A stretch of DNA of 64,000 bases from an uncultured Actinomycetota bacterium (GTDB lineage: Bacteria; Actinomycetota; Actinomycetes; Actinomycetales; Dermatophilaceae): positions 236,670 to 300,669 of the forward strand of contig CAVOGI010000002.1 in NCBI GenBank assembly GCA_963695205.1. Reading direction: 5' to 3'. A program made the translations under genes and the position numbers. Under the pieces are notes generated by a model. It saw nothing but the letters and a program-made list of their open reading frames with translations, did not search any database and had not been told where the DNA came from. Positions 39,516 to 42,988 of this stretch are shown here, in pieces. Positions within the stretch are counted from its first letter, which is position 1; every line of letters begins with the position of its first letter.

Positions 39516-39529
39516 GGGATAGACTGGTG

Positions 39530-39880
39530 GTGACCGACCGGACTGGACCCCAGCCCGCAGCACAGGACGACACCACCCGCACGACGACCCGGACCCCGGT
39601 CCGGACGTGTGTGGGGTGCCGCGGGACGGATAGCTGGTCGGCACTCCTGCGAGTGGTCGCGGAGAAGGACGAGACCGGGGTGACCCGGTTGGTGCCCGAT
39701 CCGTGGCGCCGCCTGCCGGGGCGTGGCGCATGGCTGCACCCCACGGGCGACTGCCTCGAGCAGGCCCTACGCCGCCGGGCGTTCGGTCGAGCGCTGCGTA
39801 TCAGCGCCGCGACCGATCCGGAGGCCGTCGCACGACACGTCCGGGAGCTGGCCCCGCGCCACACCCCGGATGCCCTTTGA
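39530..39880 (+). CDS. ylxR: YlxR (DUF448) RNA-binding protein
   Basis: [30 protein letters not shown]; nusA-infB context. Confidence 0.88.
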
Positions 39881-39910: not shown

Positions 39911-40030
39911 ATGACTCTGAACAGAGAGTGGGTTTGACCGCTGATGAGCACCCGATGAGAACTCAGCAATGAGCTCCCCCCAGCAGTAACGACGGTCCGC
40001 GCCTGTCCTGGCACGGACCAGGAACAGGAG
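39911..40030 (+). promoter_or_regulatory. infB leader with overlapping micro-ORF chain and alternative hairpins
   Basis: MSTR* 39944-58, MRTQQ* 39955-72, MSSPQQ* 39969-89 joined by ATGA overlaps; hairpin 39994-40019 versus anti-SD pairing 40002-11 / 40018-28; SD AGGAG 40026-30. Confidence 0.6.
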
Positions 40031-40034
40031 AAAC

Positions 40035-42988
40035 GTGGCCAAGGTCCGTGTAAGCGCGCTCGCGAAAGAGCTCGGCACCGACAGCAAGACGCTGATCGCC
40101 CACCTCAACAGCATCGGCGAGTACGTCAAGACAGCCAGCTCGACCATCGAGGCACCCGTCGTCCGCAAGGCGACGGAAACCTTCCCCGAGGACCAGAAGA
40201 AGTCCCCGGCCCCCAAGCCCGCCCCGGCGAAGCCGGCCGCTGCCGCGCCCGCCGCCCCGGCGGCGCCCACCCCGCCGGCTCCGGCCAAGCAGGCCCCGGC
40301 CGAGCCGCAGGCTCCCGCGGCCTCGGCCGCTCCTGCTGCCCCCGCTGCGGCTCCGGCTGCTCAGGCACCCTCCGCCCCGGCGGCTGCTGCTCCGGCTCCG
40401 GCTGCTCCGGCCCCCGTTGCCCCGGCAGCCAAGGCCACCCCGGCGGCTCCGGCCCCGGCCGCGCCAGCAGCTCCCGCCGCCAAGGCAGACGTGCAGTCCG
40501 CCCGCGACGGTGGCAAGCAGACCTCCGGTGTCCCCGCCTCCCCGCGCCCCGGCTCGGCTCCGCGTCCCGGCGGGCAGTCCGCTCCCCGCCCCGGCGCCCC
40601 GCGTCCGGGCAACAACCCGTTCGCGCCCAGCCAGGGCATGCGCACGGGTCGTGACGGTGGTCGCGATGGTGGCCGTGAGGGCGCTCCCCGTGAGGGTGCT
40701 CCCCGCGAGGCCGGGCGCCCGGCAACAACCCGTTCGCTCCCTCGCAGGGCATGCCGCGCCCGCAGAGCCGTCCCGGCGGTGCCGGTGCCGGTGCTGCAGG
40801 CCCGCGTCCCGGAGGAACCGCCGGCCCGGGTGGACCCCGTCCCGGTGGTCCGCGCCCGAGCCCGGGCATGATGCCCGACCGCAGCGCGGTCGGCCGTCCC
40901 GGTGAGCGTCCCGCCCGTGGTGGCGCCCGTGGCCCCGGTGGTCCCGGTGGCGCTGGTCGCGGCCCCGGTGGACCCGGTGCCGGTGCAGGTGGCGGCGGCT
41001 TCGCCGGTCGCCCCGGTGGCGGTGGCTTCCGCGGTGGCGCCGGTCGTGGCTCGACCGCAGGTGCCTTCGGCCGCGGTGGCGGTCGTCCGGTCCGTGGTCG
41101 CAAGTCCAAGCGCGCGAAGCGCCAGGAGTTCGAGCAGATGCAGGCGCCGTCGCTCGGTGGCGTCAGCGTGCCCCGCGGCAACGGCACGAGCCTCATCCGG
41201 GTGCGTCGCGGCTCGTCGCTCAGCGACTTCGCCGACAAGATCAACGCCAACCCCGGTGCGCTGGTGACGGTGCTGTTCCACCTCGGCGAGATGGCCACGG
41301 CCACCCAGTCGCTGGACGAGGACACCTTCAAGCTGCTCGGTGCCGAGCTCGGCTACAACATCGAGGTCGTCTCCCCCGAGGAGGAGGAGAAGGAGCTCTT
41401 CGACGCCTTCAACATCGACCTGGAGACGGGTATCGAGGGTGAGGACGACGAGGACCTCGAGGCTCGTCCGCCGGTCGTGACCGTCATGGGTCACGTCGAC
41501 CACGGAAAGACCCGACTGCTCGACGCCATCCGCAACGAGGACGTCGCCGGTGGCGAGTCCGGTGGCATCACCCAGCACATCGGTGCCTACCAGGTCCACA
41601 AGATGCACGAGGGCGTCGACCGTCCGATCACCTTCATCGACACCCCGGGTCACGAGGCGTTCACCGCCATGCGTGCCCGTGGTGCCAAGGTCACCGACAT
41701 CGCGATCCTCGTGGTCGCGGCCGACGACGGCGTCATGCCGCAGACCATCGAGGCGCTCAACCACGCCCAGGCTGCGGACGTGCCGATCGTCGTCGCGGTC
41801 AACAAGATCGACGTCGAGGGTGCGAACCCGTCCAAGGTCCGCCAGCAGCTCACCGAGTACAACCTGGTGGCCGAGGAGTACGGCGGCGAGACCATGTTCG
41901 TCGACGTGTCCGCCAAGGCCGGCCAGAACATCGACGCCCTCCTCGAGGCCGTCCTGCTCACCGCCGACGCGGCGCTCGACCTGCGTGCCAACGCCGACCG
42001 CGACGCCCGTGGTGTCGCGATCGAGGCCAACCTCGACCGTGGCCGTGGCGCCACGGCCACGGTGCTGGTCCAGGCCGGCACGCTGCACGTCGGTGACGCG
42101 ATCGTCACGGGTTCGGCCTACGGCCGTGTCCGCGCGATGCTCGACGAGCACGGCAACAACCTCAAGGAGGCGGGCCCGTCCCGTCCCGTCCAGGTGCTCG
42201 GTCTGTCCTCGGTCCCGCGCGCCGGTGACACCTTCGTGGTGGCCCCGGACGACCGCACGGCCCGTCAGATCGCCGAGCGGCGCGAAGCCGCCGACCGCCA
42301 GGCCTCCCTGGCCAAGGCTCGCAAGCGCATCTCCCTCGAGGACCTCAACGAGGCGCTCGCGGCTGGCAAGGTCGACACGCTCAACCTCATCCTCAAGGGC
42401 GACGTGTCCGGTTCTGTCGAGGCGCTCGAGGACGCGCTGCTGCAGATCGACGTGGGCGACGAGGTCGACCTGCGGATCATCGACCGCGGCGTCGGTGCGA
42501 TCACGATGAACAACATCAACCTCGCGATGGCGTCCGACGCGATCATCATCGGCTACAACGTCCGGGCCGAGGGCCAGAACGCTGACTACGCCGAGCGCGA
42601 GGGCGTCGAGATCCGCTACTACTCGGTGATCTACCAGGCCATCGAGGAGATCGAGGCAGCCCTGAAGGGCATGCTCAAGCCGGAGTTCGAGGAGGTGGAG
42701 CTCGGCACCGCCGAGATCCGCGAGATCTTCCGCTCCAGCAAGTTCGGCAACATCGCCGGATCGATCGTCCGCAGCGGCGAGATCAAGCGCGGCACCCGTG
42801 CGCGGATCACCCGCAACGGCGTCGTCATCTCGGAGAACGTCGAGATCGCCGGCCTGCGCCGGTTCAAGGACGACGTCACCGAGGTCCGCGACGGCTTCGA
42901 GTGCGGTATCAACCTGGGGTCCTACAACGACCTCCAGCTCGGCGACCTCATCGCCACCTACGAGATGCGCGAGAAGCCGCGCGCCTGA
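40035..42988 (+). CDS. infB: Translation initiation factor IF-2, frameshift near 40710
   Basis: MAKVRV..LAKELG, Pro/Ala/Gly/Arg-rich linker, [43 protein letters not shown]. Confidence 0.97.

Follow-up and report, generated by a model that had tools for sequence, protein, structure and literature searches.

In the class Actinomycetes, the spacer between ylxR and infB carries a chain of micro-ORFs that are joined by ATGA stop/start overlaps and that end at the 5' arm of a covarying hairpin. Computations on the window (the whole 64,000-nucleotide stretch of DNA that was analysed) and on related loci established a conserved anatomy, a constraint on reading frame, covariation in two mutually exclusive helices (hairpin A and helix C), and a higher energetic cost of opening the infB start when the last stop of the chain is masked. 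The spacer may be a translation-operated leader that controls infB as a negative switch and provides feedback on initiation capacity, a reading to which we assign a little less than even confidence. The observation behind the original prediction, a relay of overlapping micro-ORFs upstream of infB, was confirmed, and its interpretation as a reinitiation-sensing autoregulator of IF2 was partly supported overall. IF2 is an essential factor; to our knowledge, it has no established autoregulatory circuit, unlike IF3, with its AUU start, and RF2, with its frameshift. The leader is probably an undescribed coupling of IF2 synthesis to the translation activity of the cell.

Results

The ylxR-infB locus

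Pfam assignments gave the gene order around the leader as rimP, nusA, ylxR and infB. The leader and its flanking genes in the window comprise the following features:

39527 to 39880, forward strand: ylxR (rnpM-type, DUF448), the gene 5' of the leader (PF04296, E = 2e-20; stop codon 39878-80)
39911 to 39937, forward strand: MTLNREWV* ORF, lineage-specific and outside the conserved unit (present in L001, L002, L004 and L007)
39925 to 39938, forward strand: upstream box with class consensus GGAAGCRGGTC..., conserved in alignment A1, with a weak SD-like RGGT about 10 nt before micro-ORF 1
39944 to 39958, forward strand: micro-ORF 1, MSTR*, 4 codons (4 codons in most lineages); its TGA overlaps the ATG of micro-ORF 2
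39955 to 39972, forward strand: micro-ORF 2, MRTQQ*, 5 codons, without a Shine-Dalgarno (SD) sequence; its ATGA is invariant in 77/77 aligned sequences (alignment A1)
39969 to 39989, forward strand: micro-ORF 3, MSSPQQ*, 6 codons, without an SD; stop TAA (39987-89), 4 nt 5' of hairpin A
39994 to 40019, forward strand: hairpin A, 5' arm a (39994-99, ggtccg) and 3' arm a' (40014-19, cggacc), inner GCC/GGC and a variable loop, with class-wide covariation
40002 to 40028, forward strand: pairing B, a predicted anti-SD pairing of loop segment 40002-11 with 40018-28 (10 standard pairs and one bulge), in the window's order only
40012 to 40050, forward strand: helix C, a' (40012-19) with a'' (40043-50, infB codons 3-6), predicted to enclose the SD and GTG in a 23-nt loop
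40026 to 40030, forward strand: infB SD, AGGAG, identified from the sequence (anti-SD duplex of -6 kcal/mol or lower in 92/92 leaders)
40035 to 42988, forward strand: infB (IF2), GTG start at 40035 (Pfam IF2_N, GTP_EFTU and IF-2)

The original prediction had placed the MTLNREWV* ORF, the three micro-ORFs, hairpin A, the AGGAG and the infB GTG at exactly these positions. The two ATGA overlaps in the window lie at 39955-58 and 39969-72. GTG was the infB start in 100/100 Actinomycetes loci. The infB reading frame is disrupted near 40721 in the window's assembly, where a G run is short by one G relative to G009, and the G009 counterpart is intact at 997 aa. RNA-library contigs from four soil/rhizosphere studies bridged ylxR, the spacer and infB; this RNA evidence consists only of assembled contigs from soil and rhizosphere metatranscriptomes, from which transcript ends, strand and level are not readable and in which DNA carry-over is possible. 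The MTLNREWV* ORF, which had been described as preceding the chain, does so in the window, but many genomes of the genus lack it or carry a substitute, which is a shorter segment in L003, L005, L006, L018 and others, and the ORF does not belong to the conserved unit.

Conservation and frame of the micro-ORF chain

The chain was located 25-75 nt 5' of infB in 99/100 Actinomycetes loci, which represent about 38 families and have a leader GC content of 41-70%, and was present in every sampled Actinomycetes family; none of the 36 loci from the phylum's other classes had it. Matches of a pattern scan were likewise confined to Actinomycetes, for example Streptomyces, Nonomuraea, Nanopelagicaceae and Phycicoccus. 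The alignment of spacers that the original prediction had proposed as a check showed class-wide conservation of the chain, of hairpin A and of the distance between the two, which confirms its statement that ATGAG-rich runs stand before infB in other actinobacteria. On both strands of the window's 2.55-Mb assembly just two loci carry such a chain, and the element stands solely in front of infB. Chain occurrence was far above chance expectation: chains of at least three ATG ORFs were found in 73 of 83 distinct infB leaders and in 41 of 16600 dinucleotide shuffles, and the frequency of ATGA was 3.04 per 130 nt in the leaders and 0.79 in shuffles, figures to be read with the leader sequences being related, such that counts across them overstate independence.

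The links between the ORFs are nearly uniform (ATGA in 178 and GTGA in 6 of the 184 links in 92 leaders), and the distance between consecutive ATGA motifs was 2 mod 3 in 154 of 169 cases. ORF lengths vary by whole codons, with micro-ORF 2 ranging from 3 to 6 codons across lineages through in-frame indels; some lineages have four ORFs, and in one family the place of micro-ORF 1 is taken by an ORF that begins at GTG and has a strong SD (GAAGGAG). Low-GC genomes retain the starts, stops and frame links, and their flanking letters differ. The encoded peptides are not conserved (MSTR, MGTR, MTAQ, MRTQQ, MSTQR and others), their sole bias being Met-Ser-Thr/Ala, and neither a conserved stalling peptide nor an evident inducer was found among the chain peptides. 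RNAalifold on alignment A1 returned no consensus structure for the ORF part. Conservation thus lies in the frame, and not in peptide or nucleotides.

Mean anti-SD energies were -5.2 kcal/mol for micro-ORF 1, -2.3 for micro-ORF 2, -2.1 for micro-ORF 3 and -8.3 for infB, with -3.3 at random positions; micro-ORFs 2 and 3 thus pair with the anti-SD more weakly than random positions, and an SD-like site is present only at micro-ORF 1. The last stop of the chain was TAA in 52, TAG in 27 and TGA in 13 of 92 sequences, and its distance to the infB start is kept to a narrow 32-65 nt.

Hairpin A, helix C and pairing B

Across the class, 87.2% of cells in hairpin A were paired and 28 were changed on both sides, a result matched by 0/500 shuffles. 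The first paired base of hairpin A lies between -3 and +6 nt from the last stop of the chain in 80/81 sequences, and the leader ORF is sited in these 80/81 sequences such that a ribosome at the last stop would cover arm a of the switch.

Hairpin A shares the arm 40012-19 with helix C; the two are mutually exclusive, and both have covariation support. In helix C, 96.6% of cells were paired, as compared to at most 54% in slid controls, and base pairs were exchanged at pair 126-170 (CG 39, AU 10, GC 9, GU 5, UG 5) and at pair 130-166 (AU 48, GU 22, GC 7). One helix C position covaries with the wobble base of an Arg codon, which is a synonymous codon position, and RNAalifold on A1 selects helix C alone. 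Judged by these comparisons, helix C is the best-supported helix of the leader, and it, rather than any pairing named in the original prediction, is the class-wide competitor of hairpin A. Mycobacterium-like leaders retain the chain and a hairpin, but visual inspection showed no evident complement to the infB codons in them.

Pairing B had been put forward as the rival of hairpin A, and it stood up within the window's order, where compensatory changes were present in L031 (CCTTCTTCT with AGGAGAAGG), L028 and L061, and where the mean duplex energy was -10.1 kcal/mol (z = -2.1); in other orders, however, it was absent, with a mean of -3.8 kcal/mol (z = +0.3). The proposal that ribosome masking lets B form agreed with the model, in which masking of 39987-40000 made B the predicted minimum-energy fold of the window.

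Folding energies and the effect of masking

The spacer alone folded at -18.9 kcal/mol, and the whole-spacer fold was unremarkable (z = -1.26); the signal resides in specific helices rather than in overall spacer stability. Masking of the last stop plus 11 nt increased the opening energy of infB -14 to +13 from 10.8 to 16.0 kcal/mol. The opening energy rose in 81 of 93 sequences, and the mean rise was 5.2 kcal/mol, as compared to 1.8 in codon-permuted controls. Among the Mycobacterium-like leaders (n = 4), the rise stayed below 2.5 kcal/mol in two, and in one the opening energy dropped.

Ensemble energies in the window were -33.6 kcal/mol for A, -35.7 for B and -35.4 for C; the folding model includes neither pseudoknots nor kinetics. 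Because the three are near-equal in energy, "SD free" is too simple a description of the unoccupied leader, and the original prediction needs correcting on this point. In the model, the infB start region of the window would be mostly closed at equilibrium already, and the ON state would therefore have to be kinetic.

Discussion

A candidate mechanism

In the mechanism that we propose, a ribosome would initiate on micro-ORF 1 through the weak SD, and termination-reinitiation at each of the two AUGA overlaps would pass it first to micro-ORF 2 and then to micro-ORF 3, both of them SD-less; AUGA overlaps are known to drive termination-reinitiation in mycobacteria (PMC11260477). The ribosome would then terminate at the UAA at 39987-89 with its footprint over the 5' arm of hairpin A, and the released 3' arm (40012-19) would be free to pair with infB codons 3-6 as helix C. 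In the window's order, the released loop may additionally pair with the SD as pairing B, and either helix C or pairing B would suffice to close the infB start region. If completion of the chain closes the start, more completing ribosomes would mean fewer infB starts, and because each completion takes three successive initiations, throughput would report initiation capacity, most simply IF2 with fMet-tRNA. The predicted outcome is a negative, steep feedback on IF2 synthesis. That the chain is translated, that its completion lowers infB expression, and that IF2 is the signal are what we infer, and sensing of the IF2 level by the leader is plausible on this model. The full proposal is that Actinomycetes, including Streptomyces and mycobacteria, measure initiation capacity by a three-step reinitiation relay, in which completion of three AUGA hand-overs rises steeply with IF2-fMet-tRNA and each completion flips the switch that closes the infB start; this we consider doubtful, if possible, and nothing ties the chain to IF2 rather than to another factor.

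Alternative explanations

The same architecture of SD-less ORFs joined by AUGA could serve the opposite end. The chain might ferry ribosomes over the spacer, so that a terminating ribosome melts hairpin A and reinitiates as 30S/70S at the infB SD/GUG 45 nt downstream, and infB would rise with upstream translation. The narrow gap of 32-65 nt between the last stop and the infB start is consistent with such delivery, as is the activating AUGA "relay" at ppe2 of M. tuberculosis (PMC11260477). However, infB has its own strong SD in 92/92 leaders, and delivered ribosomes are therefore not needed; release of a' is predicted to favour helix C or pairing B, both of which would close the start region, and no role is left for the conserved helix C. 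We regard a positive relay as unlikely.

It is less probable still, in our estimate, that the proposed negative switch is correct as a device and responds to a different signal, such as RF2 activity at its UGA stops, the recycling of ribosomes, drop-off of peptidyl-tRNA from the 4-6-codon peptides, or antibiotics that target the ribosome. Every internal stop is by construction a UGA and the final one is mostly UAA/UAG, drop-off is steeply higher on peptides shorter than about 4-6 residues (PMC9329280), and in M. abscessus infB has a WhiB7 ChIP peak upstream of it (PMC10727445). The UGA stops are, however, imposed by the AUGA overlap, and a sensor of RF2 or recycling would be expected before prfB or frr, whereas the element in the window's assembly is found only before infB.

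The micro-ORFs could also be housekeeping cover that involves no switch, keeping the spacer between ylxR and infB occupied by ribosomes against Rho loading or RNase attack. For M. tuberculosis, it has been proposed that tightly coupled overlapping ORFs keep Rho-dependent termination in check (bioRxiv 10.1101/2022.06.01.494293), and the RNA-library contigs of the four soil/rhizosphere studies span ylxR, the spacer and infB. This explanation accounts neither for a last stop that keeps its place at hairpin A nor for the covarying helix C over infB codons, and it does not explain why there should still be a spacer, given that the chain is absent from the phylum's other classes; it is very unlikely. 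That the repeated AUGAG are untranslated protein-binding sites (e.g., for YlxR/RnpM or NusA) or structured RNA is hardly credible. YlxR is an RNA-binding protein (PMC10853771), and nucleotide conservation is near-absolute within the genus, although YlxR is only about 70% identical there; but the spacing changes only by whole codons with every frame open and stop-terminated, low-GC lineages retain starts and stops and not the flanking letters, the ORF part has no consensus structure, and no Rfam family matches.

Comparison with known systems

The proposed leader resembles NUGA coupling at uPPE2-PPE2 of M. tuberculosis (PMC11260477; bioRxiv 10.1101/2022.06.01.494293) in its 4-nt AUGA stop/start overlap, its SD-less downstream ORF and, as predicted for the infB chain, the dependence of the downstream ORF on the upstream ribosome. 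The known cases, however, consist of a single uORF joined directly to the gene that it activates, whereas the infB leader has three 4-6-codon ORFs in series, the last of which ends at an RNA switch and is unlinked to the main gene. Translational attenuation of ermC/cat shares a short leader ORF just 5' of alternative hairpins, a ribosome position that sets the pairing of the start region, and mutually exclusive helices, here A and C, of which C would enclose the SD and GUG and pair with codons 3-6. The infB leader differs in being a chain of reinitiating ORFs with unconserved peptides and no evident stalling peptide or inducer, and a ribosome at its stop is predicted to close the start, not to open it.

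Like GCN4/ATF4 in eukaryotes, the infB leader is proposed to use serial uORFs and reinitiating ribosomes, with the supply of the factor that delivers initiator tRNA setting the outcome. The bacterial ORFs overlap by 4 nt with no timed scanning interval, however, the readout would be RNA refolding and not the choice of a reinitiation site, and IF2 is not the homologue of eIF2. The autoregulated translation-factor genes infC and prfB each bear a special feature of the step at which their own product works, an AUU start read by IF3 in infC and a UGA frameshift read by RF2 in prfB; the putative equivalent in infB is an invariant GUG start preceded by serial initiation events. The infB device differs as an upstream relay outside the start and coding frame of the gene, on which the action of IF2 is putative.

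Several other assignments were considered and rejected. Rfam release 15 had no match at gathering score in the whole window, and the spacer was empty even at E up to 10; chance-level matches outside the spacer were Actino-pnp, on the minus strand inside infB (E = 1.1), and isrG. A hammerhead or K-turn reading of CUGAUGAG matched no Rfam model. A long-range stem around the chain (ACCGUC 39885-90 with GACGGU 39991-96) recurs in the family and is no better than shuffles class-wide (mean z = -0.54), and a promoter reading of TTGACC 39934-39 lacks a usable -10 element as well as conservation in other families.

Significance

In the literature searched, neither an infB leader nor a uORF chain is described for actinobacteria, and the element as a whole, with no Rfam family and no paper found, is probably undescribed. 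Three starts, two overlaps and a single stop, together with three helices of which one covaries with the wobble base of a codon, give it clearly delimited parts, and the question is therefore directly testable. The leader offers a clean natural case for termination-reinitiation on minimal ORFs, and it is a conserved cis-element before an essential gene in a class that includes mycobacterial pathogens. If the proposed feedback is true, the leader would supply the missing autoregulatory circuit of IF2 and would be the first serial-reinitiation sensor in bacteria.

Anatomy of the infB leader

Re-reading of the sequence reproduced exactly the spacer layout described in the original prediction (ORFs, two ATGA overlaps, hairpin, AGGAG and GTG), and Pfam confirmed the operon order rimP-nusA-ylxR-infB.

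Features of the leader (window positions)
39880, plus strand: end of ylxR, from sequence reading
39911-37, plus strand: small ORF, MTLNREWV followed by a stop, from sequence reading
39944-58, plus strand: micro-ORF 1, 4 codons, ATGA overlap with the next ORF
39955-72, plus strand: micro-ORF 2, 5 codons, ATGA overlap with the next ORF
39969-89, plus strand: micro-ORF 3, 6 codons, last of the chain
39994-99 with 40014-19, plus strand: hairpin A, 3' of the chain
40026-30, plus strand: infB SD, AGGAG, from sequence reading
40035, plus strand: infB start, GTG, from sequence reading

Rfam gave no family match in the spacer, nor elsewhere in the window. RNA-library contigs from four soil/rhizosphere studies span the leader, bridging ylxR, spacer and infB; they are compatible with co-transcription, without being proof of a transcript. 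In the window, infB is read in two frames (40035-40871 and 40751-42988), and its G run near 40721 (40715-40725) is one G short of the same gene in G009, a relative at 97% identity in which infB is intact and encodes 997 aa. For an essential gene in an assembly of only 52% completeness, a pseudogene is less likely than an assembly or homopolymer error.

The micro-ORF chain is found throughout the Actinomycetes

A uniform rule (starts at ATG or GTG, a maximum of 12 codons per ORF, successive ORFs overlapping by 4 or 1 nt, chain end 25-75 nt before infB) was applied to spacers from 24 genomes belonging to the same genus and to 6 other families in the order, to infB 5' regions from 60 genomes representing 28 further families in the class and 10 from four more families, and to infB 5' regions from 36 genomes in other classes of the phylum; all of these loci are from genomes that carry no unpublished flag. 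Three or four linked micro-ORFs were present in 99 of 100 class loci and two in the other, bearing out the original prediction's mention of similar ATGAG-rich runs before infB in other actinobacteria; under the same rule the chain was absent from 36 of 36 infB loci outside the class. A pattern scan of the genomes of 185,579 species returned at least 120 matches, and among the matches listed all titles were Actinomycetes organisms or MAGs, including Streptomyces, Actinomadura, Nonomuraea, Streptosporangium, Nanopelagicaceae, Phycicoccus, Acidipropionibacterium, Kineococcus and Nocardioidaceae. The sole further chain of three ATG-started micro-ORFs in the window's assembly lies outside the window (contig C9:11810-11885, minus strand) and encodes MTSVITRMT, MTKK and MTSSGRRICPDS, each followed by a stop. 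A literature search found no description of this element in front of infB.

The MTLNREWV ORF, which the original prediction had placed before the chain, is present in the window yet not conserved; the 18-nt segment that creates it is an insertion or replacement in part of the genus only. In some relatives (L014, L020-L022), an ATG farther upstream is in frame with micro-ORF 1, so that the first ORF there has 15 codons. Many metatranscriptome records of related organisms from soil and rhizosphere match only the core 39939-40005, and their divergence starts exactly at 39939/39940, which is thereby identified as the 5' boundary of the conserved unit.

Reading frame and SD pattern are conserved

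The chain core is near-invariant within the genus, where YlxR is only ~70% identical, and across the class the nucleotides vary while the reading frame is kept. The peptides differ (MSTR, MGTR, MTAQ; MRTQQ, MSTQR, MSTHR, etc.), in-frame deletions leave ORF 2 with only 4 or 3 codons in certain lineages, four-ORF chains occur in some, and the links are retained in quite different sequence in genomes of 1.2-2.2 Mb with leader GC down to 41%. Chains of at least three ORFs occurred in 73 of 83 distinct leaders versus 0.25% of dinucleotide shuffles, and 154 of 169 intervals between consecutive ATGA motifs were 2 mod 3. RNAalifold gave no consensus structure in the micro-ORF part.

An SD-like site precedes only the first micro-ORF (mean -5.2 kcal/mol; a textbook GAAGGAG in one family), and at ORFs 2 and 3 the SD is weaker than at random positions. 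Judged from sequence, this pattern is the one that marks termination-reinitiation; experiments in M. tuberculosis have established that mechanism at an AUGA overlap (PMC11260477). The infB start was GTG in 100 of 100 Actinomycetes loci, and ATG (21), GTG (10) or TTG (4) among the 36 loci of other classes; micro-ORFs nearly always start with ATG, and the invariant infB GUG may belong to the device. Of 92 leaders, 52 end the chain (39987-39989 in the window) with TAA, 27 with TAG and 13 with TGA; TGA is probably the most frequent stop in these mostly GC-rich genomes.

Alternative helices surround the infB start

Hairpin A is the single fold of the spacer in nearly all lineages, its end mostly 12-17 nt upstream of the GTG and its loop variable. 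The original prediction had proposed chain-to-hairpin distance and stem covariation as a check, and both are evident: A begins -3 to +6 nt from the last stop in 80 of 81 sequences, and its stem carries compensatory changes. Extending the folded segment 30 nt into infB switched about half of the minimum-energy folds, the 3' arm of A pairing with infB codons 3-6 (helix C). Helix C was paired in 96.6% of cells (slid controls, at most 54%); its pair with the Arg-codon wobble base was C-G 39, A-U 10, G-C 9, G-U 5 and U-G 5, and a further pair varied among A-U, G-U and G-C. It was the only helix chosen by unguided RNAalifold and is the best supported of the helices, with the infB SD and GTG both inside its 23-nt loop. 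The proposed pairing of the loop of A with the SD (pairing B) was strong, with compensatory variants, in the window's order, but absent in other orders. Ensemble energies in the window were -33.6 (A), -35.7 (B) and -35.4 (C) kcal/mol, a spread of ~2 kcal/mol.

A Mycobacterium-like family (L092-L095) retains the chain with a GTGA link (ATGAGCACACCGTGAAGTCCCGATGA) and has hairpin arms GAGGCG and CGCCTC; inspection by eye of infB codons 3-6 revealed no complement to the hairpin arm, and helix C may be lost or replaced there. In M. abscessus, a WhiB7 ChIP peak lies upstream of infB (PMC10727445).

Chain completion is predicted to close the infB start region

Ribosome occupancy was modeled on 93 leaders by placing the last stop in the A site and masking roughly the next 11 nt, which correspond to the 5' arm of A. 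The mean opening energy of infB -14..+13 rose from 10.8 to 16.0 kcal/mol; masking raised it in 81 sequences and lowered it in 10. The mean rise was 5.2 versus 1.8 kcal/mol with permuted infB codons (observed larger in 76 of 93), and the minimum-energy fold of the masked window was B. Together with the position of the stop at the hairpin, these data indicate that a ribosome finishing the chain would cover the 5' arm of A and thereby shut the infB start region. A positive relay, in which the chain supplies ribosomes to infB, is unlikely, because the infB SD is strong in every leader examined and the masking result opposes it.

From this anatomy, we hypothesize that the chain senses IF2: its throughput would report IF2, as three successive initiations are required and a factor gene is often a sensor of the step its product performs, and three steps in series would make the response steep. 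That the same device senses another property of translation is somewhat less probable than the positive relay. Plain ribosome cover against Rho is improbable, and a repeat serving as a protein-binding site is scarcely credible; conservation of helix C speaks against both, as does the last stop being held at a fixed distance from the hairpin. For the IF2-sensing chain, IF1 and IF2 reportedly have a further effect, stimulating drop-off when the peptidyl-tRNA is very short (Karimi et al. 1998), and this could invert the sign of the response. The leader is real, class-wide and apparently undescribed; uORFs, termination-reinitiation and alternative helices operated by a ribosome are each of a known kind, and their arrangement is new.
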